A stretch of 64,000 nucleotides of DNA, taken from NCBI GenBank assembly GCA_964556485.1, contig CAZKVV010000001.1, positions 84,551-148,550 of the forward strand, in the 5' to 3' direction. The notes beneath the pieces are model-generated. The model did not search any database, was not told where the DNA came from, and was given only the letters and a program-made list of their open reading frames with translations. This document shows positions 6,723 to 27,900 of the stretch, one piece after another (position 1 is the first letter of the stretch; each line of letters begins with the position of its first letter). The position numbers and the translations under genes are program-made. This stretch comes from an uncultured Pseudomonadales bacterium. Lineage in GTDB: Bacteria > Patescibacteriota > Microgenomatia > UBA1400 > PJMF01.

Positions 6723-7391
6723 TTAATCTTCAGTTGATGTTCCCTCGGAATTGTCGAGATTGTTGAAAGTCATGCCCAGTCTTTCTTCAACGGCTGAGCA
6801 TTCAATTTGGTTAAGGTTGCTATCAACGCAACCACCATTAGCAATGATTGCCTTGGCGGTTTCGATTTTGGCAACTTGACCTTCGTCAACCAGGACTACT
6901 GGATTGGCATACGCCCGCGGCGCAGTGGTTACGCGAACATTCGCATACACCGACCACTGCTCATAATTTCCCTCTGGGGTGATGCAGAACAAAAAGGGCA
7001 CTGCATCACCGTAGGTGGCATCGATGCCCATCACTTCTTCGGTGTATGCGTTTACACCGTCGACATCAATTTTCCAAAATCCCGTGTAAGCGGGATCAGC
7101 AAAATTGGGCTCGATTGATTCTGTGGATGAGACAGGTCTACCCTGACACATCCAGCTATCAATCAGCCGCCCATCATCTGCCAATTGATATGCCCAAAAG
7201 AACATATCGTCTCGATTGGAGATATGATCCGCTATCAGAATTTGAGTCCTTTCGCGGAGCGCGTCCTGATCGGAATCAGGTGCTGGTGCAGCCTCTTGCG
7301 CATTTTCCATGCGCTCAGTGGTGGTGCCACATGCTGTTACTGCTAACAGCATTACTGCTAACAAAAAAAGTACTAATGTGGTTTTTTTCAC
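6723..7391 (-). CDS. hypothetical lipoprotein (222 aa)
   Basis: Signal peptide with lipobox LLAVTAC; no family recognised. Sits immediately upstream of (co-oriented with) the LemA-like gene. Confidence 0.55.
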   Translation of the reverse strand: MKKTTLVLFLLAVMLLAVTACGTTTERMENAQEAAPAPDSDQDALRERTQILIADHISNRDDMFFWAYQLADDGRLIDSWMCQGRPVSSTESIEPNFADPAYTGFWKIDVDGVNAYTEEVMGIDATYGDAVPFLFCITPEGNYEQWSVYANVRVTTAPRAYANPVVLVDEGQVAKIETAKAIIANGGCVDSNLNQIECSAVEERLGMTFNNLDNSEGTSTED

Positions 7392-7593
7392 TCGACCTTC
7401 TCCTTGAATTTGAAAAGAAAAGATAGAAACATGTTAAATAGCTCGCGTTCACACATCAAAAAAAAACAAGATTTGTGGACGTGAATGGAGAATTATACAT
7501 GAACGATACTAATAAGTCTATTATGGGACTAAATTAGGTGTATTTGTTGCTAAAATCAAGTAGTTTTGTCATACTTACTTAGAAGGGCTTCGT

Positions 7594-7785
7594 GTGTCAG
7601 CAAAAAAACTCTATATATCCAATAAAGATAAAGTCTTTTTAGGTGTTGCGGCCGCTTTGGCGCGTTATTTTAATGTTGATGTTACCTTGATGCGCATTAT
7701 TTGGGTGCTTTTACTACTTCCTGGGGGACTGCCGGGTATTGTGCCCTACATTGTCTGTTGGTTACTCATCCCTGAAAAAGAATAA
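7594..7785 (+). CDS. PspC-domain small membrane protein
   Basis: GTG start. KLYISNKDKVFLGVAAALARYFNVDVTLMRIIWVLL...IVPYIVCWLLIP matches the PspC domain pattern (LYRS..D..I.GVC.GLA.YF..D..LVR..FVL). Confidence 0.65.
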   Translation: MSAKKLYISNKDKVFLGVAAALARYFNVDVTLMRIIWVLLLLPGGLPGIVPYIVCWLLIPEKE

Positions 7786-7850
7786 AAAGCAAACTGCTGC
7801 ATCACCATTGTGTAAGCTATCGTACATTGACAATTAGTCTATAATGACGT

Positions 7851-8228
7851 ATGGCAAGAAAACCGGCAGTAGCGCAACACATCTGTGCAATTTTAGCTCA
7901 AAAGCATCTTTTGAGTGCTACCGGCATTGTACAAGAGTTGTCTGAACAGTTTAAGCAATACAATAAAACGAGTGTGTATCGTGCTCTCGAATCGTTATTA
8001 GCAGATGGCATTGTATGCAGGCAGCTATTGGCAGGTTCGGAGGTGCTCTATGAGTTGCGAGAACACCATCATGACCACACTGTGTGCACTAGTTGCCAAA
8101 CAGTGAATGCTATTGAATGTCAATCTCACCCAGCTCCTGTAGTGCAAGGATTTGCGGTTGACCATCACCATACAACCATGTATGGAGTGTGTGATGCGTG
8201 TCGAAATAATGTCTCAAAGAATAGCTGA
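7851..8228 (+). CDS. Fur-family metalloregulator (Fur/Zur/PerR)
   Basis: HHHDHTVCTSCQ ... HHHTTMYGVCDACR: the Fur-family HHDH-x2-C-x2-C and C-x2-C metal-site architecture. Ends in TGA. Confidence 0.8.
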   Translation: MARKPAVAQHICAILAQKHLLSATGIVQELSEQFKQYNKTSVYRALESLLADGIVCRQLLAGSEVLYELREHHHDHTVCTSCQTVNAIECQSHPAPVVQGFAVDHHHTTMYGVCDACRNNVSKNS

Positions 8229-9273
8229 TCCTCAACCTAAACTGTGGATGCTGGCAGTGTTTGCACTCTGTGCGGGAGTTGTGGTAATCACTAAAGGTGT
8301 AGACATGGAGTGGAATCGTGTTTTTAATAGATCTGATTCGTCGTTTGGCAAAGCTCAGTCTTCGCCCATAGTACTGCAAGAAACAGAAGTTGTGGAAGAT
8401 GCTCAAGTTGCAACTCAGTCTGCTCAACCAGTTTCAATAGAGCCCGGTGGCACTCTGCTTTTTGCAGGTGATATGCAGTGGGATAGATACATTAGGCAAA
8501 TGGCTACAAAAGAAGGATATGACTTTATTTTGTCTCCAGTGCGCAGTGTACTGCTTTCAGCAGATGCGGTAATTGCAAATCTGGAAGGGCCAGTGACGAC
8601 CTTTCCTTCAAAAAGCCTCACGGCAGACATTGGTAGCCATGACAACTATATTTTTACTTTTAGTCCAGAAGTGCTGCCCGTTTTGTATGACCACAACATT
8701 AGGGTGGTGAATCTGGGAAACAATCATATTTTGAATTTTGGTGCAGAAGGTCTTGCTCAAACCGAACAAAACTTGCAAGCAGCAGGGATTGCATACTTTG
8801 GAAATACCTCAAAAGAAACTTGGCTGGCAGATTCATTTTTAGAGTATGACTTGAATGGTTTGCAGGTATTATTGGTCAATTACAACCAATTTCTTGCGAG
8901 TGATATGGCTGTTTTGCTTGAGGAAATTCAGCAAAAAAATACTCAGTATGATGCGGTAGTGCTTTATACCCACTGGGGGAATGAGTACCTTACCGAAGCA
9001 AGCGCTTTGTATCAAGAACGGGCACATGCGTTTGTTGATGTGGGCGTTGATTTGATTATTGGTTCGCATCCGCATGTTATTCAGCAAAAAGAAGAATACC
9101 GGGGCAAAACGATTTATTACTCACTGGGAAATTTTGTGTTTGATCAGTATTTTGATCCCGAGTCTCGTAAGGGTTGGTTGGTTGAAGTTGCCTTTGATGC
9201 AGATGGTGAATATACAAGCAAGGAAATTCCGACATATCTAGAAAAAAATGGTCAGACCGTGTTGGTAGAGTAG
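8209..9273 (+). CDS. CapA/PGA_cap-family metallophosphatase-like capsule synthesis protein
   Basis: N-terminal membrane anchor followed by motifs GNNHILNFG, HWGNEY, IIGSHPHVIQ and YSLGNFVFDQ typical of the CapA family. ATG at 8209 overlaps the fur-like gene by 20 nt; ATG 8251 is an alternative start. Confidence 0.8.
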   Translation: MSQRIADPQPKLWMLAVFALCAGVVVITKGVDMEWNRVFNRSDSSFGKAQSSPIVLQETEVVEDAQVATQSAQPVSIEPGGTLLFAGDMQWDRYIRQMATKEGYDFILSPVRSVLLSADAVIANLEGPVTTFPSKSLTADIGSHDNYIFTFSPEVLPVLYDHNIRVVNLGNNHILNFGAEGLAQTEQNLQAAGIAYFGNTSKETWLADSFLEYDLNGLQVLLVNYNQFLASDMAVLLEEIQQKNTQYDAVVLYTHWGNEYLTEASALYQERAHAFVDVGVDLIIGSHPHVIQQKEEYRGKTIYYSLGNFVFDQYFDPESRKGWLVEVAFDADGEYTSKEIPTYLEKNGQTVLVE

Positions 9274-9374
9274 GGGGTTGCGCCTAGAGTATCGCCCTTC
9301 ATGGTTTTAGTCTCCATACGTCTTATAGTATTTACAAGTCTTATAATATATGTTATAATTAGTCGTTGTGGTTT

Positions 9375-9790
9375 TTACTGCAACTGCACATTTAAACTGG
9401 CTGATCGCAAGAGAGGCCAAGTGTGGAACATCAAAAAAACATCAAATGGTATTTTTCTACCTCGTTGGTGACCATGCTTGGCCCCTCTTAAGTGCGGAGA
9501 GGTGTGTCACTCGCCCCGACATGGGTGAGAAACAATTGCTCAGGTGCCTTGTAAAGTGCAAGGTCGACCGCCACGCACGAATATCGTGAATTGGATTATT
9601 CACATCTGTTTTACAAAATACAGATGCCATTGGGGTGGTATGTAGCACCACTGAATAATTCAAAAGCCAAGTAAGCTACGAAGGAAAGAAGTTACCAAGT
9701 GGGTCTGAATTGGTTTACACTAATACTGCAAACCAATTCGAGAATCCCATACTCATGGTAAAAAAGAACTTTTTAAAGTCCACTTCGTCA
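9375..9790 (+). ncRNA. rnpB: candidate RNase P RNA (bacterial type A-like, divergent)
   Basis: No plausible ORF. A -35/-10 promoter-like TTACAA-16-TATAAT lies at about 9331-9358. Matches to M1 RNA conserved regions, in the correct order: GAGAGGCCAAGUGUGGAAC vs GGGAGGAAAGUCCGGGCUC (CR-I/P4 5'); CAGGUGCC..GUAAAGUGCAAGG..ACCGCC vs AGGGUGCC..GGUAACG..GUGCAAC..ACCGCC; a P12-like hairpin CATCTGT/ACAGATG; GGGGUGGUAUGUAGCACCAC vs GGGUGCGGUAAGAGCGCACC; AAGCCAAGUAAG vs AAGGCCAAAUAGG; GAGAAUCCCAUACUCAUGG vs ACAGAACCCGGCUUAUCGG (P4 3'). The P4 strands covary (GUGUGGAA pairs with UCCCAUAC). Ends are approximate. Confidence 0.45.
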
Positions 9791-10010: not shown

Positions 10011-11462
10011 TTAGAGCCATTGCTTGCAATAGGTGGCTACATCAAATTTTCGTTCAGCACCAGAACGATTCATATATCTAACTGTCCCAAAAATGGGACG
10101 TTCAAACCAGGGACGGTCATGCACGCCGCCCATACTCCAAGCAACACCGGTGTAGCCGTTGGGATCGCGGCCGTCGAGTTGATAGGTATCGTTGAGGGTT
10201 AGGGCAGTTGTATGTGCTTGCTCGACAGTGGCACTCCACTCAAAGATTTTCTTAGCCCAGTACATACGCATATATCCGTGCATGTGCCCAGATTTGACCA
10301 TTTGCTTTTGTGCGGCATTCCACAAAGTGTCGTGGGTTTGGGCAGTTTCGAGTTGTTCAAGATTATAACTGTACTCACGGGGGTCTTCGGCATGTTGTGC
10401 TAATGTTTTTTCTGCCCACTGGGGATATCCTTTGGTGTCGGCATAGTTGGGGTTGTAGTAGCAAAAATTTTCAGCTAGTTCGCGACGAATAAGTAGCTCT
10501 TCTAAAAATGCATCCTTGTCTTGTTGAGGGGCCTGGGCGCCTTCGACGGCCTGGTAAATTTCAGCAGCACTCAGCATGCCAAAATGTAGCCAAGGGGAGA
10601 GGGTAGAAGTGTGTTGTTTGGTCGGGTCGTTTCGCAGCCTAGCATAGTCGTGCACGTTTGTTTGCACGAATTTTTTGAGTGCGATTTGGCCCGCTTTTTG
10701 GCCGGGTGTAAACCAGTCTGGCAGCTTGATGGTAGTGTCAACGCGAATCTTTGTATGCAACTGGGCAAGTGTGTGTTTCGTTTCTTCTGAAATAGTTGAA
10801 GGAACTGGATGCACCTTGAGCGGTGGAAAAGCGGTGAGGTAGGCTGGCAGTAGGGATAGCAGTTTTGGTCGCAGAATTCTGGCAGAAAAAGCGGCTTTGG
10901 GATAGGCAATCCAGGGAGGAATAATGTTGTGCGCATCGATAGTGTGGACTTCATAGTCACTTTTTTCACTGAGTTCTTGGCGCCAAGAGACATTCAACTT
11001 CAGCGGTGAAAAGTCGGTGACGATTAAACTTGCTTGCTGTGCTTGCGCAAAATCCGCAACCATTTTTGGAGGGTCCCCAATAAGAATGGCTAGGCCAATG
11101 GCATGATTGGCTAACTCAGCAGAAACGTCGAGTAAACCCTGTTGCAGACTTACGAGTAGTCTAGTAGTGCCATGGTGCTTGATAAGGTCCTGGCGAATAG
11201 CAAACACAACAGTTAGTGCCACCTTACGCGCAAGCGCTTGTTCCTGGGCGTAGAGCAATGCCCAGTTGTTGCGAGTTCGAATATCTCGGGACATCCAGTA
11301 CACCACTGATCCCGATTGACTGACGCCGGGTTGGGTAGCTTTAGTTGATGGTGCAATTCTGTTGGCGAAGTTGGTTGAATAGGTGTAGTAATTGTGCACT
11401 GACTGGTATACTAACACTATGAAAACTTCCACACTATTGTCACAACGTTGGTTGCAGATCAC
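10011..11462 (-). CDS. class II CPD deoxyribodipyrimidine photolyase
   Basis: Strong match along its length to class II photolyases: GSVVYWMSRDIRTRNNWAL; TDFSPL; ...GYMRMYWAKKIFEWS...LNDTYQLDGRDPNGYTGVAWSMGGVHDRPWFERPIFGTVRYMNRSGAERKFDV. The 5' end is uncertain: ATG at 11462 adds about 50 non-conserved residues, and an in-frame GTG at 11399 gives a more typical N-terminus. Confidence 0.85.
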   Translation of the reverse strand: MICNQRCDNSVEVFIVLVYQSVHNYYTYSTNFANRIAPSTKATQPGVSQSGSVVYWMSRDIRTRNNWALLYAQEQALARKVALTVVFAIRQDLIKHHGTTRLLVSLQQGLLDVSAELANHAIGLAILIGDPPKMVADFAQAQQASLIVTDFSPLKLNVSWRQELSEKSDYEVHTIDAHNIIPPWIAYPKAAFSARILRPKLLSLLPAYLTAFPPLKVHPVPSTISEETKHTLAQLHTKIRVDTTIKLPDWFTPGQKAGQIALKKFVQTNVHDYARLRNDPTKQHTSTLSPWLHFGMLSAAEIYQAVEGAQAPQQDKDAFLEELLIRRELAENFCYYNPNYADTKGYPQWAEKTLAQHAEDPREYSYNLEQLETAQTHDTLWNAAQKQMVKSGHMHGYMRMYWAKKIFEWSATVEQAHTTALTLNDTYQLDGRDPNGYTGVAWSMGGVHDRPWFERPIFGTVRYMNRSGAERKFDVATYCKQWL

Positions 11463-12036
11463 TAGAGTGGTTCGTATTGTTGCATACTATGTCTTGCCAA
11501 CTATGTTGTTGGTGGGTTCGTTGCTTTTTGGTAGTGAAGTGCGTTTTATTGCGCAGTTTGGAAACGCAGCATTATTTCTTATTTTGGGTAACTTATTTCT
11601 TAAGCCGGTTGCTTTGATAACAAAGAATGGCATTGTTTCGCTGTTACTTACTTTGCGCAGGGAAATGGGAGTGGCAAGTTTTTGGCTCTATATTTTTCAT
11701 GCGGTGGGAATGGTGAATATTTACAAGTTTCAACCGGCTGATTTTGCAGGAATAGACAACTTTTTATTGTATGGATCTTTAGCAGGGATGGGAATGTGGG
11801 TCTTGGGCTTAACTTCAAACAATGGTGCTCAAAAACTACTAAAGAAAAACTGGAAAAAAGTGCAGATGGTAGCGTATCCCGTACTTTTTTTGGCGCTGCT
11901 TCATGGTGCAAAAGCACAAACAGAAATTGAGAAATTTTATCTTTTTTCGACACTCTATCTTTTCCTGAAAGCACTGCAATTTAAGAAGGTTGATTTATCT
12001 GTACAATTTGGAAAATTGCCCTTGTGGCTACAATAG
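11419..12036 (+). CDS. ferric-reductase-like transmembrane protein (MsrQ/YedZ-like heme-binding membrane subunit)
   Basis: Multi-TM protein with LRREMGVASFWLYIFHAVGMV and KKNWKKVQMVAYPVLFLALLHG, resembling the MsrQ pattern (RR.LG..AF.YA.LH / W+.LHRL.Y....LH). ATG 11419 chosen; the ORF track began at TTG 11392. Confidence 0.5.
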   Translation: MKTSTLLSQRWLQITRVVRIVAYYVLPTMLLVGSLLFGSEVRFIAQFGNAALFLILGNLFLKPVALITKNGIVSLLLTLRREMGVASFWLYIFHAVGMVNIYKFQPADFAGIDNFLLYGSLAGMGMWVLGLTSNNGAQKLLKKNWKKVQMVAYPVLFLALLHGAKAQTEIEKFYLFSTLYLFLKALQFKKVDLSVQFGKLPLWLQ

Positions 12037-12082
12037 GATATGACTTCCGCATGAGTGGTATTTGTTGTATTATCATACCCAT

Positions 12083-13984
12083 ATGATGCAAGAAACTGTT
12101 GGTTCTAATTATTGTAATAAATGTGGCGATCCTATTACTGGAAGCTTCTGTTCTGCATGTGGTTCCAAAGTAGTGAGGCAGAAGATGCGTGAAGGAGTCG
12201 CAACACGTGAAAAACAAGTTGCCCCAATTTTTATTGGCTCCATGGCTGTTAACACGACAGATAATCAAATTATTTTTCATGACGCTGCGGGAGTAGAGTC
12301 TCACAGATGTAGTTTTAATGATTTTGCACAATTAAGTACCAATAAATCGATTGATAGTATATTGGCAAACCCAACGGTGAATGATCGTATTGTAGTAACT
12401 ATTTCTCAACAAATCGATGGAGTACAAATCAAAACAACACTAGATGTGCCTCAAGCACACTATTTGGGAGCAAGAGGAATAGTCGATTATTTTAATCCTA
12501 AGGTTGATACAGCCGAGCTCGCTGCAAACGTTGCAAATTATGAACAATTGCGAAAAAAAAGAGAAAGAGTTGATGGTGGCTTACTTACGTATTCACCAAA
12601 GACGGAAGATGGCACAAAATTTTCGAGAGCAGAAACGAAACTTGCAGATGGCAGTGATTTTCCCGTCTACGTTCCTGCTGAACTATTAAACATATTAGAT
12701 GGCGCATTATGTGTTTTTTTAACTACAGCTTCTAATCTTACCCAGGATTCTGATACCTTTAACCTAGCAGGCCACACTATAAATAAAGCACAACTACTTA
12801 GCACTTTATCTGGCAATGGACAATTCTATCCATTTAGAAGAGAGCTTATTAATCCTAGATTAAGTTTGAATGATGTCAAAACACATCAAGCATATTTGCC
12901 AGTAAATGACATTAATAATAAACCCATTATTATTTCCATCGATCAAACGATTCTAGTTGAGTTATTTGCAAAGTATGAAAAGCAAATAGATCAACCTGCA
13001 GTGAGAATGTCAGTTGAAAATACTCTGAAGAGAGAGAAGCATGTTGTTACAAAATCTGAACATAAAGTTAACGTTGGTATAGCAAAAGGTTTGGTGAGAA
13101 AAGGTAGTTATGTGCGTGAAGGTCAAAGATTTAGCGAATCGATAGATGTCCAAGCTGGGACAACAATAGGTGATAGATTTTTAGATGCAAATCAAGAAAG
13201 AGCAGCAAATCAGGACATGCTCGTTGCTCGAACAGTCGAGATGGCAGATGGTACGATTGTTACTATCCTCAGAGTGTATGACGGGATGGGAGGACATGGA
13301 CACGGTGAGCAAGCATCTAAAACAGCAGCAGCAAACGAAATTAATTTTCTTACCACTCTCACTGAGAAGCAAATTAAGGCTATAAAAGATCGAGCTCAAA
13401 AAAAGAACAGATCGTATGAAGTTGAGTTAGCAGATGTAATGCTCAAATACATTGCAAAGACAACCGTTAGCCAAATTCCTGCTGAGGCAGGCACAACTAT
13501 GTCGGGAAGCTTGATTATCAATGGCAAATGCATTGTAACGAGCAAAGGTGATTCGAAGACATACGTATTTAGGGGTGGAAAACCTGTATTACGGACAATT
13601 GATCATAGTTTGGTTGCGAGGTTAGTAGCTACAAAACAAATTACTCCGGATGAAGCAGTGCATCATCCGCAAAAGAATGTGATTTATAAAACAGCACTAG
13701 ATGAAGGAAGGGATGGAAATGTCGTCGCAACACACCCAATGCAGGAATTTCCTTTTGAAATCGCAGAAATTGTTCTCGAGGAAGGTGATGTGATCATATC
13801 AATGTGTGATGGAGTTGCTGGAGGTATTGAGACTCAGGGAAGAGATATTGAACAAGAGTTGCAAGCAATGATCGCGGCAAAATCTCAAGACGCAGCGCTG
13901 TATGCACTAAATGTCTTAGCCGAAGGTAGTGGTGACAACGATACCTTTTTGATGGCAACATACCACACATCGAATGTGACGTAA
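12083..13984 (+). CDS. zinc-ribbon domain protein with C-terminal PP2C-family Ser/Thr phosphatase domain
   Basis: N-terminal CNKCGDPITGSFCSACG (CxxC-x9-CxxC). The C-terminal ~260 aa carry PP2C motifs: VYDGMGGHGHGEQAS (DGxGG), GDSKTYVFRGGKPVLRTIDHS, ISMCDGV and GDNDTFLMATY (DN.T). The middle ~300 aa are unassigned. Confidence 0.7.
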   Translation: MMQETVGSNYCNKCGDPITGSFCSACGSKVVRQKMREGVATREKQVAPIFIGSMAVNTTDNQIIFHDAAGVESHRCSFNDFAQLSTNKSIDSILANPTVNDRIVVTISQQIDGVQIKTTLDVPQAHYLGARGIVDYFNPKVDTAELAANVANYEQLRKKRERVDGGLLTYSPKTEDGTKFSRAETKLADGSDFPVYVPAELLNILDGALCVFLTTASNLTQDSDTFNLAGHTINKAQLLSTLSGNGQFYPFRRELINPRLSLNDVKTHQAYLPVNDINNKPIIISIDQTILVELFAKYEKQIDQPAVRMSVENTLKREKHVVTKSEHKVNVGIAKGLVRKGSYVREGQRFSESIDVQAGTTIGDRFLDANQERAANQDMLVARTVEMADGTIVTILRVYDGMGGHGHGEQASKTAAANEINFLTTLTEKQIKAIKDRAQKKNRSYEVELADVMLKYIAKTTVSQIPAEAGTTMSGSLIINGKCIVTSKGDSKTYVFRGGKPVLRTIDHSLVARLVATKQITPDEAVHHPQKNVIYKTALDEGRDGNVVATHPMQEFPFEIAEIVLEEGDVIISMCDGVAGGIETQGRDIEQELQAMIAAKSQDAALYALNVLAEGSGDNDTFLMATYHTSNVT

Positions 13985-14004
13985 ATTGTGTATGAAAAGT
14001 AAAT

Positions 14005-15531
14005 ATGTCCACACAAACCACTGAATGGCAACCAATTACTTTTTTTGATACTACAGACTCAGATCAACATCAAGAACCTGCCTCAGAGCAAGAAGAATAT
14101 ATATCTCCTGGATATCCAGAACAAGAAGTACTCATTCTTGAGGGAAGCACAGCTCTTCTGGAAATAACCAATGCTTGTTTGGCAGATTGTCCTTGGTGTT
14201 ACAAAAGTCATAGCAATGATGTGAAAAACAGCGTGACTCGTCACAAAGGTCACGTTGAGCTAAATGACCTAAAACGTAGAATTGAGTGGATAGACTCATT
14301 CTCTTCTGCAACAGAAATTTGTCTTTTGGGTGGAGAACCACTGTTACATCCTCATTTGCAAGAATTGTTTGATTTTTTGTTAGAGCGAGGTATCCAACCA
14401 CAAATTATCACAGCAGCAGTGGTTGGGGATTCCGAGATTGGAAAGAAGAATACCGACATTTTGTTTGATTACTGGTTGCGTGGATTAGTAAATGTAGAGC
14501 TGAGTTATCAGCCACAAAAAAATCAAGCAGAATTTACAGCTCTGTACACCCGAATGAGAGAAGCTTTGCCTGGCAGAAACGATGTAATTCGTGGCGAAAT
14601 AAGGAAAATTGAAGATGTAATTAGATCAGATGATTCCCAGCTTTCAGAAGAAGAAAAGAAGGCACTTACAGCCAAAAATTCAGCGCTCCTTGCTCAACTA
14701 CCTAATGGAGTAGGTAAGTATCAAAAATATTTTTTACAATCGGTTGCCACGTTTCCTCGACATATTATTACTAATCCAGAGCTTTGGGCAAAGGAGTTTA
14801 CCCAGTTGATGCGTGTGGCAGTAAACGTTGATATGACAAGTACAGCTGAAACTATGAGTTATGAGGGAAAAGATTGGATAATGGTTGATTCTATAGAAGA
14901 ATTTCGCCAATTATTTTTGCGGGTAATTAATTCTGAGCCAAATCCTGATGGGTCAGCAATATCCTTTGATGATTATTTCCCAAACGATGGGTCTTTGCCA
15001 AACTCATCACTACGTATCTGGAGTGAGCAGCAAATTTATCCCCGTTTTATCAAGGATGATACTTCCCCAAGTGGTAAACACCATGTGGCAAATATGGTAG
15101 TTCAGAGACCAGGTTCAGCGAAATATGCACAAGTATGTTCGTACATGAAAGTGAAGCCAAAAGGCACAAAGGCGTTGAGTATAACTAGCTTGCTAGTGAG
15201 AACTGACGGTGAGTGTACGTTTACAGAACCAGAGTGTATTGCAGCAAAAGAAGGGTTTACAAATGTTGACTTGCATCAAACACCAGAGGAAATATATGCG
15301 GTTACACTTGAACATGCTCGATTGCTGCGTTTCTTAAACTATGAAATTAAAAGAAAGCGTGCCGAAGCAATTGGTGTAGGAGCTGAGGGATACTGCAAGT
15401 TTGATCCGCTCATAAAAAGTGGCGAAATAAAAGTTGGTAACCTGCCTTGCCACGGCTGCGGTATTGAAGGTTCGGTGGGTAACTTGTGTCAAATGTGCAG
15501 CGCTATACGAAGAGTAATGGTACCTCAGTAA
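14005..15531 (+). CDS. radical SAM domain protein (QueE/NrdG-like single-cluster core) with a Cys-rich C-terminal region, 508 aa
   Basis: CLADCPWCY (Cx3Cx2C) at residues ~58-66 and ICLLGGEPLLHP (the GGEP SAM-binding motif). C-terminal CHGCGIEGSVGNLCQMCS cysteine cluster. 20 nt downstream of the PP2C gene. Confidence 0.65.
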   Translation: MSTQTTEWQPITFFDTTDSDQHQEPASEQEEYISPGYPEQEVLILEGSTALLEITNACLADCPWCYKSHSNDVKNSVTRHKGHVELNDLKRRIEWIDSFSSATEICLLGGEPLLHPHLQELFDFLLERGIQPQIITAAVVGDSEIGKKNTDILFDYWLRGLVNVELSYQPQKNQAEFTALYTRMREALPGRNDVIRGEIRKIEDVIRSDDSQLSEEEKKALTAKNSALLAQLPNGVGKYQKYFLQSVATFPRHIITNPELWAKEFTQLMRVAVNVDMTSTAETMSYEGKDWIMVDSIEEFRQLFLRVINSEPNPDGSAISFDDYFPNDGSLPNSSLRIWSEQQIYPRFIKDDTSPSGKHHVANMVVQRPGSAKYAQVCSYMKVKPKGTKALSITSLLVRTDGECTFTEPECIAAKEGFTNVDLHQTPEEIYAVTLEHARLLRFLNYEIKRKRAEAIGVGAEGYCKFDPLIKSGEIKVGNLPCHGCGIEGSVGNLCQMCSAIRRVMVPQ

Positions 15532-15564: not shown

Positions 15565-16647
15565 ATGTCATTATCCGCTGGAATTGTTGGTCTACCAAAT
15601 GTAGGCAAGTCAACCTTATTTAACGCTTTGCTAAAACGCCAGGTGGCGCTTGCTGCAAATTATCCATTTGCAACCATCGATCCAAACACTGGCGTGGTTC
15701 CTGTGCCTGACGATCGCCTCGAAACATTGGCAAAAGTGGTGGGAACGACCGTTATTAAACCTGCAACTATGTCGTTTGTAGATATTGCTGGTTTGGTTAA
15801 GGGTGCGAGTGAAGGTGAAGGATTGGGAAATCAATTTTTAGCCAATATTCGTGAGACCGACTTAGTCTGTCATGTAGTGCGTGGCTTTACTGATAGTGCC
15901 ATTTTGCGCGAAGGCAGTACCGATCCTGCATCAGATAAAGAAATTATTGAAACTGAACTATTGCTTGCCGACCTAGCAACACTCGAAAAACAAAAACCAC
16001 CAAAAGCTACTAAAGAAAAGGATGCGTTGTTTCGTTGGAGCGTGATCGAGGAAATGCTAGCTGCAGTTCGACACGGTAGTGCAGTTGCAACCGTTTTGGA
16101 TACGCCAGAAAAAAAACAGATTGGCAGAGAACTGGGTCTGATTTCAGCCAAAACGGTGATTTATGTCGTTAATGTTGATGAAGATGTAGTTGGTGACCAA
16201 GATGTGCAAACCGCAAAGTTTGCCCAGCTGCTCGGTGTGCATGCAGAGCAAGTGGTGATTATTTCCGCAAAAATTGAGAGTGAAATAGCAACACTTTCGG
16301 ATGAAGATGCGCGCATATTTTTAGCTGAACTTGGGCTAAGCAAAAGTGGACTGGAGCGGCTTATTCAAAAAGTATTTGATCAACTTGGCTTGCAAACCTA
16401 TCTAACTGCTGGCGAACTTGAAGTCAGAGCATGGACTATTCATAAGGGTGATTTTGCTCCTCAAGCAGCAGGCGTTATCCACACTGATTTTGAAAAAAAG
16501 TTTATCAAAGCTAAAGTTGCCTCATATGCAGATTTCATTTTGCTTGACGGTTGGAAGGGCACTAAAGAAAAAGGCAAGCAACGACTCGAGGGCAAAGACT
16601 ACGAAATGCAACCAGATGATGTGGTTGAGTTTATGATAGGGGCCTAA
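15565..16647 (+). CDS. ychF: ribosome-binding ATPase YchF (Obg-family GTPase)
   Basis: G1 motif GIVGLPNVGKSTLFNAL and conserved YchF coiled-coil and TGS C-terminus (...DFEKKFIKAKVASYADF...). Confidence 0.9.
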   Translation: MSLSAGIVGLPNVGKSTLFNALLKRQVALAANYPFATIDPNTGVVPVPDDRLETLAKVVGTTVIKPATMSFVDIAGLVKGASEGEGLGNQFLANIRETDLVCHVVRGFTDSAILREGSTDPASDKEIIETELLLADLATLEKQKPPKATKEKDALFRWSVIEEMLAAVRHGSAVATVLDTPEKKQIGRELGLISAKTVIYVVNVDEDVVGDQDVQTAKFAQLLGVHAEQVVIISAKIESEIATLSDEDARIFLAELGLSKSGLERLIQKVFDQLGLQTYLTAGELEVRAWTIHKGDFAPQAAGVIHTDFEKKFIKAKVASYADFILLDGWKGTKEKGKQRLEGKDYEMQPDDVVEFMIGA

Positions 16648-16698: not shown

Positions 16699-17043
16699 AT
16701 GAGTTTTTCATACTTTGGGAAAAAGAAGGAAAAAATGACTGAACAACCTCCAGTAGACACAACGAATCCCGAACGGCCAGCACCGGGGACACCAGAATAT
16801 GCCTTACTAATGTTCGACGAGGGTGAGGATAGAGATTTTGTTAGAACCTTGTCTACTGAGTTTGAAGAGATTTCTCAGGAAGAAGTGGAACAACGGGTTG
16901 TTGCTTTGCAGCAATTGGCCGAACAACACTTCGAAGCAGTTCGCTCAGAGGCATTAAAAGTTAACGAAGCAGGTAGTAAAATGCTCAGTGGCACCGTGAG
17001 TGTCATTTTGGAGATCCAAAGCATTGGGCAGAGCACAGCGTAG
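16699..17043 (+). CDS. hypothetical acidic protein (114 aa)
   Basis: ORF in the same orientation, 51 nt after ychF. No family recognised. Confidence 0.4.
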   Translation: MSFSYFGKKKEKMTEQPPVDTTNPERPAPGTPEYALLMFDEGEDRDFVRTLSTEFEEISQEEVEQRVVALQQLAEQHFEAVRSEALKVNEAGSKMLSGTVSVILEIQSIGQSTA

Positions 17044-17051
17044 TGCAAGAG

Positions 17052-17534
17052 ATGACGTATGAACAACTGCGTGCATTTGCGACAGAAAATCTGGATACAG
17101 CTTTTTGGACAAGTAGATCTAAAACTTCGCAAAGGCCAAATGAGTGGTCAGATATTCCCGAAGATGAATCCGCAGCCGAGCCGTCTGCCCTTGATAAAGT
17201 TCACTCATTAGCAACTATGGGTGAAATTATTTTTTCACCCTTTACTGGTGAATATGCGGTACTTGTTCCCAGAGTGAATGTAGATGCAGCTAGACTTGAA
17301 CGATTTTCGAAGTTGTTGCAAGCTGTAGCAATTAGCGAGTATGATCGCGGACAAAATGGACATCCAGCTTTTTTTGACAGCTATTTAGAAGAGTTTGTTT
17401 CTTTTGAAGTACGGATTGTTAGAATTAAAACTGAATCCCAGGCGGAAGCTCCTATTTCAGCAGTTGTACATAATACATTACTTGGAAAAGCTAGAGCATG
17501 GGTTGAGAAACAGAGAAATCGATTTAGCAAGTAA
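17052..17534 (+). CDS. hypothetical protein (about 160 aa)
   Basis: ORF abutting the previous one (GTG 17043 overlaps its stop; first ATG at 17052). No family recognised. Confidence 0.45.
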   Translation: MTYEQLRAFATENLDTAFWTSRSKTSQRPNEWSDIPEDESAAEPSALDKVHSLATMGEIIFSPFTGEYAVLVPRVNVDAARLERFSKLLQAVAISEYDRGQNGHPAFFDSYLEEFVSFEVRIVRIKTESQAEAPISAVVHNTLLGKARAWVEKQRNRFSK

Positions 17535-17559: not shown

Positions 17560-18891
17560 ATGAATGGCGATTACAATCAAAGATTTCCATATCGAGATGA
17601 ATCTCAAGGAGGTAAAGTGGAAGTCAGCTCGCCATCTGAGCTCAAAACGCTCTTACATCGGTACTTTGATTTGGATGAATTGAGAGGGCTGTGTTTTGAT
17701 TTTGGAATTGCTTTGACTGAACCACAATATCGCGCTTTAAATGCATTGAATCGAAGCGATCTTGCAGATTATATGGTTAGAGCACTAGAACAATCTGGAA
17801 ATCTGCAACGTTTGCAGGATGCCATTGTAACCCTGCGACCTTTTTTATCTGATGTACAAAAGACAAGTGAGTTGCCATATGCACTTGTTGATAAAAAGTT
17901 ATTACTTCTTAAAAGCGTACTTAATGATAAATTTAATAAAAGCGAGCTTCAGAACCTTTGTTTTGATTTGAACATAGGTTATGAGTCTCTATCAGGTGAA
18001 AGTACATTTGCAAAAATACAGCATCTTATAATCATATGTAACACTACTAATCGCATTGATGAGTTAGTTGACGCAATAGTAGCAGAACGCTCAGAAACTG
18101 GTTTGAAAGAAATCGAAGCACCAGCTCAACCTCAAACCGAAAAGTCTGTTGAAGTTTTAAAACTTCCAAACAGTGTTCTTATCCGTGACTTTTTGATGCA
18201 ATTTTCACTAAAAGAGCTGACAATACTGATGTATTTTTCTGATCTGCCAGTCGGCACGAAAAGTAAACCAAGTATGTGTCTAGAAATTGCTCAATATCTT
18301 CCTAGACATGGTATAGATGAGTATGCGAAATTTTTGCAGGCTTTACACACGTACAAACCAGAGCAGGACTTGGTTGCAGCACAATTACTAACATCGTACG
18401 ATTTACTACCAACTGCTGAAAATAAGAAAATTGCAATTTTCAACACTTTAGTGCAGAAGATTACTACCAAGGTGGCGCTTGACGACGTATGTTTAGATAT
18501 ATTTAAAGTAAAACTTGCTGCAGATCTGTATAGTTACGACAGAAAGTCACCAAATATAGATCTTGGTATAGTACAACTTATGGAATATGTTGTAAGGCAA
18601 GCATATTGCTCTGACATAAATGAATTACCAGCTATTGCTGATGCAGCACTCAATCGGCCTCAAGCTGCAAAAGAATTAAATCAGTTAACAACGCGTCGCG
18701 ATTTTGTTAGTTATGTTAGAGTGCACGCAGTATCGAGCGAAGATTTTAAGAATGTTTGTCTTGCTTTTGATTTAGATCATGAAGATTTAGAAGGTGCAGA
18801 TCCTTATGAAAAAGCACTGTATTTAGTTCAAAAATTGTACTCTCATGGAATGATCTCAACATTTACTCAAAAGATGTCTCAGCTAGTCTAG
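17560..18891 (+). CDS. protein composed of five tandem effector-associated (EAD1-like, Death-like) helical repeats
   Basis: Five repeats of ~80-90 aa, each with the pattern [L/I]xx[L/F]L...F...EL..LCFDL.I.YE.L.G...........L......L.EL...[IL]...RP. Repeat 1 is SELKTLLHRYFDLDELRGLCFDFGIALTE...NLQRLQDAIVTLRP. Repeat 2 is KKLLLLKSVLNDKFNKSELQNLCFDLNIGYESL...RIDELVDAIVAER. Repeats 3-5 are more degenerate (FSLKELTILMYFSDLPVG; VALDDVCLDIFKVKLAADL; SSEDFKNVCLAFDLDHEDLEG). No other domain. Confidence 0.6.
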   Translation: MNGDYNQRFPYRDESQGGKVEVSSPSELKTLLHRYFDLDELRGLCFDFGIALTEPQYRALNALNRSDLADYMVRALEQSGNLQRLQDAIVTLRPFLSDVQKTSELPYALVDKKLLLLKSVLNDKFNKSELQNLCFDLNIGYESLSGESTFAKIQHLIIICNTTNRIDELVDAIVAERSETGLKEIEAPAQPQTEKSVEVLKLPNSVLIRDFLMQFSLKELTILMYFSDLPVGTKSKPSMCLEIAQYLPRHGIDEYAKFLQALHTYKPEQDLVAAQLLTSYDLLPTAENKKIAIFNTLVQKITTKVALDDVCLDIFKVKLAADLYSYDRKSPNIDLGIVQLMEYVVRQAYCSDINELPAIADAALNRPQAAKELNQLTTRRDFVSYVRVHAVSSEDFKNVCLAFDLDHEDLEGADPYEKALYLVQKLYSHGMISTFTQKMSQLV

Positions 18892-20767
18892 CCGCATGCA
18901 AAGCTAACACCTCCCGAGGATCTTCAAGCAGTAATAATGCTAAACAAAACTCCATATGTCGTCTGGTAGTGAAGTCTTCTGATTTTTCATGAGTACTATG
19001 AAAATATGTTTCTGTTGCTGCAAAATATTTTTTTGCTTGCTGAAGAGCTTCTTCTTCAGTTGTGACAGCACCCTCATCCTGATCTAATAGGACACATTTT
19101 GCAATCACACCAATCCATTCACCACCTTTTTTGTTAAGGCTTTTTAATAGCTCTTTATTTGAGAGCAATGGTTTAGCAACTTTTGTTGCAATGTCATATT
19201 CAGCAGTTTTTTGACTAAACCAACGTTTCATTTTCACTAAATCTTGCAAATCATCTTCTTCAAGTGGTGTATTTTCATTACCATTTCTTCCTCGATAATC
19301 TGCTTCGGTTACCAACATTAAAAAATTAAGTGGCAAACCTGCTTCGGTTGCGAGTTTCCGCGCCATTTTTCGCAGTGTGGTGGCACTATCAAATGATGTG
19401 GCCGTGCTACTTGGTTCTCTTGGAAATTCTTGTTTAAACACACCTCCTAACTGCATGTGTTTTGGCACCAGAGCTTCAACTTGCATTTTGGTAGCATTAT
19501 CAATTTTTAATCGATTCAGGAAACGTCTAGTTGGTTCAAGTCCTGCTGCTTCATGTCCAAATGCGCGGTAGTAGCCATCTTTCAATTCAGTAGTGGCGGG
19601 TTTTCCTAGATCGTGACAGAGCATCGTCAACATGAGCACTAGTCGGCGGTCATCAGATAGATTTTCACGCTCGGCAATGAGTGCGGCAGCATCGAGGGTT
19701 TGTAGCGTATGCACCCAGGCATCACCTTCGGGATGAAAGAGTTGATGCTGAGGCGTGCCAATCAAGGCAAAAAATTCAAGCCAGTATTTTTCAATAAAAC
19801 CAATTTCTCTTGCAAATTCTAGACCAACAGATGGTCTGTTACTTTTAAGCAGCATCTTGAGCAACTCATCTCTGACACGTTCAGCTGCAAGTGTATCCAA
19901 TAAACCATCTGCAACCATTTTGGTACAAAGAGCAACGGTCTCTGGAGTAGGCTGCATCTCAAATCGAGCAGTAAACTGCATAATGCGAAGAACTCTGAGT
20001 GGGTCTTCAATAAATGTTTCATTGTCTGTTATGCTTATTTGCTTGCTTTGAAGATCAAGTTTTCCTAAAAATGGGTCATAGAGACTCTTGAGCAGCGGAT
20101 CATAGGAAAGGGCATTCATTTTCAGATCACGACGGCGGCTTGCTACTTTATAATTCATTGAAGGATTAGTAACAGTTTTGAAATCTTTGTGACCAGGCCC
20201 AGTTGAAACATCTGTACGGGTCACTGATACATCAAGTGGTTCAGCAAACCCATCAATGTAGACTTTTATAACACCGAACGACTTACTCACACTATCGATT
20301 TTGCTCTTCGGAAAGGTTTTTGTAAGCACTGCCTGCACTGTTGGCACATCAAGACCATACACTTCAATGTCAAAATCTTTGGGTTTTGGTGTTGTGCCGG
20401 TGAAGTCAGAAAGTACGACGTCGCGAATTATGCCGCCAACGAGCAAAGCACGACCACCAACAGTTTGCACGTTCTTACACAGGTGTAGTACCTCGTCAGG
20501 GATTGTAAATCCAAGTTCTCGTTCTTCTACGTTTGTTTGGGCATCAATGTTTGGAGTAAGGTAGCTCGCGTTGACCCCAGTCAGTTCACTAATAACGAAA
20601 AGAGTAGGGAGTGCAAGGGACGGATCAACGGTGATTAGTTTTTCTTCTTCAGGCAGCGTTACCCCAAAATGCTCCTGCATTATTTTGGAGGTTTCTTGCC
20701 AGCTTTGAATGGTTTCATTTTTCATGTTTAAGCCCATAAGTATACAGGGAGAAGGTGCTTTTGTCAA
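18863..20767 (-). CDS. cca: CCA-adding tRNA nucleotidyltransferase (class II, HD domain) with a ~190-aa C-terminal extension
   Basis: LVGGIIRDVVL (GGxxRD), DFDIEV, RRDLKMNAL (RRD.T.NA) and the HD motif CHDLGK. The 3' end overlaps the convergent EAD gene by 29 nt. Met11 or Met15 may be the true start. Confidence 0.8.
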   Translation of the reverse strand: MTKAPSPCILMGLNMKNETIQSWQETSKIMQEHFGVTLPEEEKLITVDPSLALPTLFVISELTGVNASYLTPNIDAQTNVEERELGFTIPDEVLHLCKNVQTVGGRALLVGGIIRDVVLSDFTGTTPKPKDFDIEVYGLDVPTVQAVLTKTFPKSKIDSVSKSFGVIKVYIDGFAEPLDVSVTRTDVSTGPGHKDFKTVTNPSMNYKVASRRRDLKMNALSYDPLLKSLYDPFLGKLDLQSKQISITDNETFIEDPLRVLRIMQFTARFEMQPTPETVALCTKMVADGLLDTLAAERVRDELLKMLLKSNRPSVGLEFAREIGFIEKYWLEFFALIGTPQHQLFHPEGDAWVHTLQTLDAAALIAERENLSDDRRLVLMLTMLCHDLGKPATTELKDGYYRAFGHEAAGLEPTRRFLNRLKIDNATKMQVEALVPKHMQLGGVFKQEFPREPSSTATSFDSATTLRKMARKLATEAGLPLNFLMLVTEADYRGRNGNENTPLEEDDLQDLVKMKRWFSQKTAEYDIATKVAKPLLSNKELLKSLNKKGGEWIGVIAKCVLLDQDEGAVTTEEEALQQAKKYFAATETYFHSTHEKSEDFTTRRHMEFCLALLLLEDPREVLALHAARLAETSFE

Positions 20768-24955: not shown

Positions 24956-27900
24956 ATGCAACAAGAAGAAAGAGAAACAACTAAAAAACCTGAAAGCAAA
25001 CATGGTGGTCGGGAGCCCTATATCTGGAAAGACGGCGTTGCGCGTGTAGAGCGACCGATGGACATGTATTTGAAAGAAGTTTTAGACAAGCTATCTCAAA
25101 AACAGGTTGTTGTAGTTCAGGCCGAGACTGGAGTGGGCAAGACTTCCAGAATTCCTCAGGCAATCATGGATAGTCAGCCTAATACAAAAATCTACATGAC
25201 TCAGCCAAGACGGTATGCCGTACGGATGAACGCTGGATATATTGCCAGAGAGAAAAAACAACGCTTGGGACAGGATGTTGATTTTACCTTACGCGGTGTT
25301 CCTGGCGAGAATAGCCAAGATAAAAAAGCAAGTCGAGATGCAAAACTTGAGGTCATGATCGACGAAACATTGGTCAATAGAATCTTACGAGAAAAAAAGC
25401 TTCCCGATGGAGTGATTATTGTTGATGAAGCGCACGAGCGGTCGATAAATATTGATCTATTGTTGCTGCTTATTCGTACCTACTTGCCAAACTCTCCGAA
25501 TACAAAAATTCTGATTACCTCAGCAACTATTGATACCCAAAAGTTTAAAGGCTACTTTAAGTATTCTCCAGAAGAGTTGACGGCATATTCTGGCAAAGAG
25601 TCCGAACTCGATTTTGCTGCTGAACCAGTGATTGCCCTCAATGAGAAATTGTTCCGAGTCGAGACAGAAATGATCCACCTAAATTCTGGAGAGCACCATA
25701 CGACAAAGGCAATCGAAACGGCTGTGGAAGTCTTTAAGCAGTTTGTTGTTGGTAAAACAGAAGCTGGGTTAAAAGATCGTGTGCTAGCAGAAGAAGAAAG
25801 AATTTATAGAGAAAAGGGATTTATTAGCTTTTCCGTCCTACCAGTACCTCAACCATTAACCATTCCACCAGAACAAGAAGGTGATGCTCGCATTCCGGTC
25901 GCAGATGGAACTGTTTTGGTTTTCTTACCTGGTAAAGAAGAGATCGCAGAAGGTGTGAGGGTGTTAAAAGAGTATGCAAGAAAAATTGGGTGCTCTGAGT
26001 ATGTCGAGTGTCTCTCGATGTATAGAGGGGTAGATGATGCTGAGAGAAACGCAATTGAGGCCCCAATTGTTCCTGGCAAGTTGCGAGTTATTTTTACTAC
26101 TGAAATTCTTAAATCGTCAGTAACACCAACAAAAACAGTGGTGGTCATCGACTCATTTCAGGTTAAGCGCGATGTTGAAAATGAGCATGGTGTGTCAGTA
26201 CTTAGAAAAGTGTCACAGTCTGGTGCGGAGTCAGAGCAAGCAAAAGGTAGAGGCGGTAGAACAAATACAACGGTCTATAAACCAGTTGTTGGCGGAATTG
26301 ATGAAGTTTTATCAATGCAGGAAGAGTCAGGAGATTATTGGCCACAGCCTGCAATTTTGAGAGAAGGCATAATTTCGGTAACGCTAAAGATGGCTGCTGC
26401 TGGGTTGGATATAAAAACTGCCAAATTGCTTGACAGACCTAATCAGAAAAATGTTGATCGAGCAGTAATTCGTTTGCAACAAATCAATGCACTTGATGAT
26501 GAAGGCAGAATCACGTCGTTTGGCAGAGAGTTGCTGAGATTTTCGATTGCACCAGAGCAAGCCAAAGCGTTATTTGAGGGAGAAAAGCAAGGGGTATTAC
26601 CTGAAAGTATGATTGCGCTAGCTGTAGCCTCAGAGGAAGGCATATTCTCACTTCCTCCAAGAGGAATGAGAGAACTTATTTGTTCGGAGGTTGATCTGCA
26701 ATCTGGGTTAGAGAGATATCTGGCAACAAAGTGGTTGAGGGAGATTCACTATAGTTTTTCTGGAATTGCTCAAGACAGCGGAGAGTTGCAAGAAAAATTC
26801 CAAGCTATTCAGCGAGAAAAGTGGGGAGAAGTTCGACTTGCGTTTAAAGATTCTTATCTGAACTCAGCGCGTTATCCCGTTTATATTAATACTTTGGAAG
26901 CCAAGAATCTTTGGCAACATGTGGAGCAGACGCGCATCTATGATGGTAGGCAAATGATTGATGGATTGTTACTTGATTATGTAAGAGAACTGGTTTTTGA
27001 CAAGCTGAGTTCAAGTTCGATTACCATTCCAACTACTCAAGAATCATTGCACGCTGACCTGATGAAAATCAAAGCTACTATAAATGTCAAACTTACCCAG
27101 TTTGGTGGTGCACCACTGGAAATGCGTTTTAATCCAACTGTCTTGAGCGAGCTAACGTTTCCTTTAGGGTACGGCATTGTTCGTTCGGAGGTGATAAAAC
27201 AAGCTCTGCAATTTAGGGTAGAAAATGAAGATGATATCTTACTTGACGTATTTAATATTCGCTATGATCAAGGATTCTTTAGAGTAAAATCATCTGAGAA
27301 CGATTCATCCATTCCAAATGATTTTTTTAGCACAATTTTGTGTCCCGATTGTAAAGTCAGGAACCGTGATAGCGATCTCGATGAGCATGATTATCGAAAA
27401 CAAATATATGAAAAGAGATGGTTGCAATTTGCACTTGATCAAGATGGTCAGCAAACAAACTCCGATTTTGTTGCATCTGTAAATGCATTTCGAGCCTACA
27501 AACAGGCAAAAAGACAGATGTCCGACAATCAACTTTGGCTTTGGTGCCAGGCAAATGGGCTCAACCTCAAAAAAATGCAGCAAGTTGATACTAGATTAAG
27601 TTATTTGATTGACGAGGTTGAAAAAAGTAGGTTATCACTTTCCGAAAATGTTTCCAGTCGACGTGCATTTTCTTCAGATGCACTTACTAAAGCGATGTTA
27701 GCTGGATTGGCTGCCAATGTTTGTTTTGGTCAATCAGGTCCGGTGGCTCCATTAATCAGTGCATCTAAAGAATCAGCGCTCAATGGTAAGGCTCCTTACT
27801 ATATATTTGGTGGCATCAGAAAATCAGAAATTAAGCCCAGAAAGTTAGAGCATCATCTTCATTTTGCCAGCCTTTGTGCGCCAATAAAGCTGGAGTGGTT

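Follow-up and report, generated by a model that had tools for sequence, protein, structure and literature searches.

The closest described counterparts of the two genes considered here are the SPASM/twitch enzymes of the radical S-adenosylmethionine (SAM) superfamily and the PP2C phosphatases of the Stp1/IreP/PstP type. The canonical SPASM motif reads CX9-15GX4C-Xn-CX2CX5CX3C-Xn-C (PMC5715301), and twitch domains are without the four-Cys block (PMC5715301; PMC9012708). We analysed a stretch of 64,000 nucleotides (positions 84,551 to 148,550 of contig CAZKVV010000001.1, GenBank assembly GCA_964556485.1), hereafter the window, from an uncultured Pseudomonadales bacterium that GTDB places in the Patescibacteriota. 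A gene for a PP2C-containing protein is followed there on the same strand by a gene for a radical-SAM protein. The 508-aa radical-SAM open reading frame (ORF) of the ORF list (14005..15531, + strand) and the gap of 20 nt that separates it from the phosphatase gene (13985-14004) are both as described in the original prediction, which had further suggested that the two genes, together with a downstream gene with repeats of the effector-associated domain (EAD), may form a regulatory or modification module. We find a conserved module of this kind not to be supported. Our preferred reading, to which we assign a probability of roughly 60%, is that the genes are functionally independent neighbours placed side by side by chance in a compactly packed run, one encoding a Ser/Thr phosphatase and the other a radical-SAM enzyme of a small family, the substrate of which is not a cassette-encoded peptide. 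The ORF lengths and the domain E-values of both genes are far beyond chance.

The radical-SAM protein can be assigned to its superfamily by three features: the CX3CX2C motif, the GGE motif and a match to PF04055 above the curated cut-off (36.5 bits versus 29.5), which covers residues 53-142 only. The Cys of the first motif, C58, C62 and C65 (nt 14176-14199), are kept in 44 of the 45 family members aligned. The second motif lies in GGEPLLHP (residues 109-116), which varies little or not at all over the 45 members, with G109 and E111 of GGEP (109-112) invariant. Based on PF04055, motif conservation and an AlphaFold2 (AF2) model, the (beta/alpha)6 core is placed at 14140..14934 (+). It is preceded by an extension of about 45 aa (14005..14139, +), which was delimited from the alignment, the predicted local distance difference test (pLDDT) and the isoelectric point (pI). 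The extension is acidic (pI 4.1) and rich in Ser and Thr; its residues 1-33 have a pLDDT below 50 and are predicted to be disordered. It varies among family members, several of which have none. The AF2 model built on the 45-sequence alignment has a pLDDT of 82 and a predicted template modelling (TM) score, pTM, of 0.85, compared with a pLDDT of 62 for an earlier model from 8 sequences, and the values for residues 45-220 are 85-98. In this model, a long helical hairpin is inserted after strand 4 of the core (about residues 174-229), and after the core there are a beta-sheet, a Cys, a Gly-containing hairpin, another Cys and a long helix, with the Cys block coming last.

The best matches of the AF2 model among solved structures, namely EpeE/YydG, SkfB, SuiB, SpeY, PqqE, MoaA and GDGT-MAS, are all SPASM/twitch enzymes, at modest scores (E about 1e-5, TM 0.3-0.5). 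The nearest sequences outside the family are generic members of the same clade, which is the closest one to the family core in both sequence and fold. The CX3CX2C and GGE motifs are common to the family and to the SPASM/twitch enzymes anSME, PqqE, SuiB, SkfB, EpeE/YydG, MoaA and BtrN. In contrast to these, the family carries the long helical hairpin in its core and has neither a RiPP recognition element (RRE) domain (RiPP, a peptide made by the ribosome and modified after translation) nor a peptide cassette. Fold matches in BFVD and matches in PHROGs are generic.

Named families are matched at low scores. All NCBIfam matches of the radical-SAM protein are far under cut-off and confined to the N-terminal core (about residues 50-150, over 90-130 residues). 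The models matched in this way include those for viperin, TrsS, twitch-type enzymes, NirJ, the W-cofactor maturase, PqqE, MoaA, QueE and NrdG. The best of them is viperin with 31.5 bits against a cut-off of 180, and the respective values are 18 against 206 for QueE, 15 against 126 for NrdG, 20.8 against 284 for MoaA and 21 against 381 for PqqE. No member among the 45 reaches an NCBIfam cut-off. With scores so low and restricted to the core, QueE, NrdG, viperin and cofactor maturases were rejected as the identity of the protein. The generic N-terminal radical-SAM half-barrel is what the family shares with prokaryotic viperins (pVip), QueE and NrdG; the matches end at about residue 140, and those families are without a seven-Cys tail. 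The comparison with GGEP-type single-cluster enzymes of the QueE/NrdG kind, made in the original prediction, therefore does not hold, since the class indicated by the seven-Cys tail and by the fold matches is the multi-cluster SPASM/twitch one. Its statement that neither protein has the architecture of a familiar housekeeping enzyme is borne out in both cases, and the radical-SAM protein is no recognisable orthologue of QueE, NrdG or a cofactor-maturation enzyme.

The C-terminal Cys-rich domain (15112..15528, +) was defined by column counts and spacings over the 45 members. It contains seven Cys, C378, C411, C464, C482, C485, C495 and C498, which are invariant or nearly so, as is D401-G402; C464 is kept in 41 of the 45. 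A cluster of five Cys seen earlier in the tail is real and corresponds to the last five of this set, to which C378 and C411 are now added. The tail motif of the family is C-X21-26-G-X8-C, X43-53, C, X5-24, CX2CX5CX2C, and no Cys follows the four-Cys block in 44/45 members. The window protein is alone among the 45 in having an insertion of 4 aa, VGNL, inside this block (residues 491-494, nt 15475-15486, +). The likeness to SPASM lies in the C-terminal position of the extension, in the same count of seven Cys and in the order of elements: a Cys, a beta-hairpin with an invariant Gly, a second Cys, a long helix and a four-Cys block at the end. The differences are that every spacing in the family is non-canonical and that the lone Cys is upstream of the block, whereas in SPASM it is downstream.

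These differences are reflected in the searches. The CX2CX5CX3C pattern is present in 0/45 family members, and Pfam SPASM matches 0/45 at E<=1. The tail of the window protein has no Pfam match even at E<=10, and a profile of the C-terminal domain finds no solved SPASM/twitch (or other PDB) sequence at E<=10. A canonical SPASM domain (the PF13186 / TIGR04085 class) was rejected on this basis at both the profile and the motif level. As to the SPASM/twitch signature that had been suggested as a check of the tail, the number of Cys agrees and the fold matches of the whole protein are to this class, but neither the Pfam model nor the canonical motif is found. From the Cys conservation and the resemblance in fold class, we infer that the tail binds one or two auxiliary Fe-S clusters. 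It is probably a divergent auxiliary-cluster domain, the seven Cys of which would hold, most likely, two clusters in the manner of SPASM, while by profile and motif it is not SPASM.

The same fold matches bring up the alternative that the radical-SAM protein is a SPASM-class RiPP maturase acting on a small precursor peptide. The best of them are peptide-modifying enzymes (EpeE/YydG, SkfB, SuiB, PqqE), PapB, StsB, PqqE and ScmF are among the models that come closest to the core in NCBIfam, and the count of conserved tail Cys equals that of SPASM. Against it, the gaps beside the gene (20 and 33 nt) leave no room for a precursor ORF, and no RRE/PqqD-like domain was detected in Pfam. No recurrent small ORF, peptidase or transporter was found beside 16 other family members, where ORFs of <60 aa were not searched systematically. 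The absence of a Pfam SPASM match in all 45 members and TM-scores of just 0.3-0.5 also speak against a RiPP maturase. The locus does not look like a maturase cassette, as no component of one (precursor gene, RRE/PqqD-like domain, peptidase or transporter) was found, and we consider this explanation quite unlikely. A substrate encoded or made elsewhere, as in our preferred reading, is made likely by the family gene standing alone, in varying neighbourhoods and without room for a precursor peptide.

The radical-SAM family is real but small, and it is unnamed and without a curated model. A word-indexed protein search returned 7 relatives of the window protein at 25-30% identity, and when 1.84 billion proteins were searched exhaustively with a profile, 54 cluster representatives were obtained at E<1e-30. 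Scoring 343 bits on the family hidden Markov model (HMM) versus 333-469 for other members, the window protein is among the most divergent of them. Labelled members belong to Candidatus Collierbacteria, to three metagenome-assembled genomes (MAGs) named "uncultured Pseudomonadales" (loci L004, L006 and L009) and to one "archaeon" MAG, all of these labels being unverified. Loci L006 and L009 have a gene order in common with the Candidatus Collierbacteria locus L008 and a gene content like that of the candidate phyla radiation (CPR), and the synteny makes their "Pseudomonadales" labels doubtful. From the distribution of the family and from the genes around it, the window is itself probably from a CPR/Patescibacteria-like bacterium. 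A family-specific DNA pattern gave one match in viral contigs, and this match is not a family member. Besides the family, the profile search returned proteins of 700-1950 aa (P0083-P0095, P0101, P0102, P0119 and P0151) with 2-4 stretches matching the radical-SAM N-terminal core; these appear to be multi-radical-SAM-domain proteins unrelated to the family's tail.

The phosphatase gene occupies 12083(ATG)..13984 (+) and encodes 633 aa, in agreement with the public annotation (P0009), which uses the same ATG. The earlier figure of 640 aa applies to an alternative TTG start at 12062 and not to the start at 12083 given with it. Near the N-terminus, a regular expression on the translation identifies a zinc ribbon, CNKC-x8-CSAC (12113..12160, +; C18-N-K-C21-x8-C30-S-A-C33); the ribbon had been predicted correctly, except that its spacing is x8 instead of x9. 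Pfam DZR matches it weakly (E 1.3e-3), and the DZR/Zn_ribbon matches in general (E 1e-3 to 6e-2) are all under cut-offs. The following region of about 330 aa (12197..13186, +) is an orphan by both homologue and domain searches. Pfam is empty for it even at E<=10, which agrees with its earlier description as unassigned. Residues 1-378 have only a self-match among 5.8 billion sequences, a PDB sequence search with the protein matched nothing N-terminal of the PP2C part, and the N-terminal region has no paralogue in the window.

The C-terminal part is a PP2C (PPM) domain of the Stp1/IreP type (13193..13954, +), as supported by NCBIfam, PDB and alignment. The NCBIfam Stp1/IreP model (NF033484) matches residues 378-631 in the 640-aa numbering with E 3e-26 and 92.3 bits, compared with an equivalog cut-off of 230 bits, and the Pfam PP2C models match under their gathering scores. 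Stp1 structures in PDB (5f1m, 6ih*, 2pk0) match at E 1e-13 to 4e-12, the best being S. aureus Stp1 5f1m (E 9e-14). In an alignment with 13 PP2C proteins (633-aa numbering), R373, D378, D400-G401-M-G-G-H, D576-G577 and D618 show no variation, and N619 shows hardly any (at least 90% conserved). With the metal-binding motifs and the phosphate-binding Arg, R373, conserved together, the domain looks catalytically competent, and its earlier description as a complete catalytic domain is confirmed. All the motifs quoted for the two proteins (DGMGGHGHGEQAS, GDSKTYVFRGG, IDHS, MCDGV, GDNDT, CLADCPWCY and GGEPLLHP) are in the translations. The conserved Asp residues and the DGxGG, DG and DN motifs place the protein in PPM/PP2C at the domain level. 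Membership in the Stp1/IreP equivalog group is not indicated, given the score below cut-off, a length of 633 aa (with an orphan N-terminal 370 aa) versus about 250 aa, and no kinase or FHA gene detected in the window where the group has a PASTA/Hanks kinase gene paired with it; the generic Stp/PrpC-type phosphatase that had been named as a refuting outcome describes the catalytic domain only. The protein is predicted to be soluble, with no transmembrane-grade hydrophobic segment. PADLOC reports nothing for it, and in PHROGs one unknown PP2C-containing phrog is matched, over the PP2C domain only.

Compared with the Stp1/IreP/PstP phosphatases, the catalytic domain is homologous and keeps all metal-binding Asp/Gly motifs, but it is C-terminal in a longer protein, behind the zinc ribbon and the homologue-less region. 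The gene also differs from its nearest relatives in having no adjacent gene for a Hanks kinase or an FHA protein. The relatives looked up (P0010, P0024 and P0029; 5 loci) are all found in Ser/Thr signalling clusters with Hanks kinase and FHA proteins, and in one case vWA, whereas no Hanks kinase, FHA or vWA gene was found in the 64-kb window by motif regular expressions and phmmer probes from the relatives' loci. A similar layout, with an N-terminal (double) ribbon, a long middle and a C-terminal PP2C domain, is known for zinc-ribbon-linker-PP2C proteins such as P0010 (629 aa) and the NCBIfam PRK14559-type (642 aa). P0010 resembles the window protein in the PP2C domain only (26% identity, with 32% of the query covered); its middle, which is low-complexity and Pro-rich and has another ribbon in it, bears no relation to the middle region of the window protein. 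The P0010 locus is a kinase / PP2C / vWA / FHA cluster.

The association of the two genes was assessed at 16 other family loci, obtained from the encoding contigs of relatives, by scanning GTDB and by running a degenerate DNA pattern specific to the family on metagenome contigs. A PP2C, EAD7 or YchF neighbour of the radical-SAM gene is present at 0/16 of these loci, and a radical-SAM neighbour of the PP2C gene at none of the three PP2C relatives. As no relative examined has the other gene adjoining, there is no sign that the two work jointly. The spacing of 20 nt is uninformative, because the window is 90% coding, with a median same-strand gap of 29.5 nt and 39% of same-strand gaps at <=20 nt. 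A literature search did not find an association of PP2C with radical-SAM proteins. The original prediction had itself named conservation of the pair in related genomes as the check to be made, and the lack of it as part of a refutation. The pair is not conserved together at the other loci examined, the gap is ordinary and an EAD7 partner is missing, which together count against the proposed regulatory or modification module.

Neighbours of the radical-SAM family vary with lineage across the 16 loci. Collierbacteria-like loci have a GT2-GtrA glycosyltransferase and a membrane protein beside the family gene; at other loci the neighbours are TypA, a LAGLIDADG-like protein with a HAD hydrolase, Methyltransf_28, a DsbD-thioredoxin fusion, or Fic. 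At L001, where the closest relative (P0002) is encoded, the Methyltransf_28 gene ends 16 nt upstream of the family member, and a second, unrelated radical-SAM gene of 620-640 aa lies about 1 kb downstream on the opposite strand (L001 coordinates 6842-7984, 8001-9572 and 10606-12537). The window has, 3.3 kb from the radical-SAM gene, a gene for a 634-aa nucleotidyltransferase of the CCA-adding/poly(A)-polymerase type (18863-20767, -), which contains an HD domain and is extended at both the N- and the C-terminus by long stretches without assignment. A 24%-identical homologue is encoded about 4 kb from the family member at L002 (7809-9218). With two of 17 loci only, this proximity is probably a coincidence.

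Several observations weigh against the reading of chance neighbours, and they are largely those that would favour a lineage-specific two-gene module, in which the radical-SAM enzyme or its substrate is under the control of the PP2C protein through dephosphorylation, for example of the Ser/Thr-rich tail. The two genes, on one strand with a short gap and no terminator-like site between them, are probably co-transcribed. The rest of the run is housekeeping, and none of its genes is as divergent or orphan-like as these two. The 45-aa extension of the window radical-SAM protein, disordered, acidic, rich in Ser and Thr and missing in several relatives, could in principle serve as a phospho-regulatory tail, and the phosphatase is without the kinase and FHA neighbours of its nearest relatives. 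The collections searched hold no close relative of the genome: the nearest radical-SAM relative is 26-30% identical and the phosphatase N-terminus is without a homologue, so that, over distances like these, a missing pair argues only weakly against a link restricted to the lineage. For the radical-SAM enzyme itself, pLDDT is lowest around the four-Cys block (56-76 for residues 470-508), and Fe-S binding by the tail Cys is something we infer. On the other side, pairing is absent from all the radical-SAM and PP2C relatives compared and unreported in the literature searched, short gaps are the norm in the window, and the same run goes on into ychF and an MsrQ-like gene of unrelated housekeeping functions. 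Moreover, the search of the 64 kb found no kinase that might carry out the phosphorylation. We regard the lineage-specific module as unlikely, and it keeps this small share of probability because there is no close relative in which conservation of the pair within the lineage could be checked.

A more elaborate version would see in the tail an auxiliary-cluster domain not described before, a permuted SPASM in which there are seven Cys but the lone ligand precedes CX2CX5CX2C, and in the family one confined to ultra-small symbionts (CPR bacteria and DPANN-like archaea). The enzyme would then carry out a conserved modification of a housekeeping target and, in this one lineage, be under Ser/Thr-phosphorylation control by the adjacent PP2C protein through its own tail. 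We consider this combination a long shot.

The remaining part of the original suggestion concerns the EAD-repeat gene, which encodes 443 aa consisting wholly of five tandem EAD7-like repeats (17560..18891, +; Pfam EAD7 E 1.9e-23 and a repeat HMM). EADs mark conflict systems, some of which have radical-SAM effectors (PMC7159879). In EAD coupling, the same EAD is present on a core nucleoside triphosphatase (NTPase)/vWA/VMAP component and on an effector, and the two are usually encoded close together (Kaur et al. 2020, PMC7159879). The pair might accordingly be placed in an anti-phage or conflict island together with this protein, 2 kb downstream, with the radical-SAM protein being viperin-like or modifying an effector; its best single NCBIfam and PADLOC matches are indeed to prokaryotic viperin (E 1e-7 and 6e-10). 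However, the viperin matches cover just the generic N-terminal 90 residues, at the low score given above, and the W-cofactor maturase model is matched equally well by 43/45 members. The cognate EAD expected on a core component (PMC7159879) is also missing from the window. Searching the 64 kb with an HMM built on the five repeats gave no further EAD7-like ORF, and Pfam detects no EAD on either the PP2C or the radical-SAM protein. No STAND, vWA, MoxR or GTPase core was found among the scanned window ORFs, ychF and other housekeeping genes intervene, and no family member was found in viral contigs. EAD coupling of the pair was rejected in the absence of a second EAD7 in the window. A defence system was rejected as well, PADLOC giving weak core-level pVip matches only and none for the phosphatase. 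Apart from the repeats, no element of an EAD-coupled NTPase conflict system was found in the window, and no evidence links the EAD7-repeat gene to the pair. We consider a conflict island very improbable and retain the reading of two independent neighbours. The EAD7-repeat protein has no enzymatic domain, and its occurrence as a stand-alone protein amid housekeeping genes is odd, as EADs are thought to act by pairing with a cognate copy.

The order of genes on the + strand is MsrQ-like, PP2C, radical-SAM, ychF, a 114-aa ORF, a 163-aa ORF and the EAD7-repeat gene. This confirms the run of genes on one strand described before (11.4 to 18.9 kb), except that the two small ORFs, in addition to ychF, interrupt it. 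The first gene (11392..12036, +) encodes an MsrQ/ferric-reductase-like membrane protein (NCBIfam MsrQ E 1.5e-9; Pfam Ferric_reduct E 3e-6). Its longest ORF (TTG, 11392) overlaps the 5' end of a divergent photolyase ORF (GTG, 11462, - strand) by about 70 nt, which means that one or both true starts are probably further in. The ychF gene, for a ribosome-binding ATPase/GTPase, begins 33 nt downstream of the radical-SAM gene (15565..16647, +; Pfam YchF-GTPase_C E 1e-31, MMR_HSR1 E 5e-24). The ORFs of 114 and 163 aa (16699-17043 and 17043-17534, +) are acidic, and the stop of the first and the start of the second have one base in common. They have no Pfam or NCBIfam match, and their exact sequences are absent from the protein collection.

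A scan of the window for promoters and terminators gave no more matches than the shuffled expectation, and no terminator-like site lies within the gaps between these genes. The Rfam scan of the window found tRNA-Leu only. The wider window encodes housekeeping functions, including RecR, CysS, YchF, a CCA-type enzyme, SSB, an S41 protease, a release factor (RF), GlmS, HisS and an HrpA-like helicase. In the 1890-aa ORF at 24956-30628 (+), the N-terminal ~530 aa are recognised as a DEAD/Helicase_C/HA2 (HrpA-like) helicase module, whereas ~1350 aa are without assignment. Among the housekeeping genes are also ORFs of 915, 449 and 450 aa (22147-24894, -; 247-1596, +; 33768-35120, +) with no Pfam match at E<=1e-3.

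In the proposed scheme of two independent functions, the first gene product would be a soluble Mn2+/Mg2+-dependent Ser/Thr phosphatase that, by analogy with its family, removes phosphate from pSer/pThr proteins, and the zinc ribbon and the lineage-specific orphan region may provide targeting. In the second, the CX3CX2C cluster and the GGE motif would bind SAM and cleave it reductively to the 5'-deoxyadenosyl radical, as is general in the superfamily. The seven-Cys domain may hold one or two auxiliary Fe-S clusters, as in SPASM/twitch enzymes, for electron transfer or substrate handling. As its substrate we consider most likely a protein, an RNA, a lipid or a metabolite that is encoded or produced at another site, and not a cassette-encoded RiPP.

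Radical-SAM families awaiting characterisation are common, and so are PP2C domains that carry orphan extensions. Each of the two genes is mildly novel on its own, as a new variant within a well-known superfamily, and their pairing, read as a chance adjacency in a compact genome, opens no new question. The radical-SAM family is of more value than the pair, as it is small, is without a curated model and has members in Candidatus Collierbacteria and in archaeon-labelled MAGs. Its seven-Cys tail breaks all SPASM spacing rules, and motif- and Pfam-based surveys of SPASM/twitch proteins would miss it. Characterisation of the family would widen the definition of auxiliary-cluster domains and could reveal a modification specific to reduced-genome symbionts.

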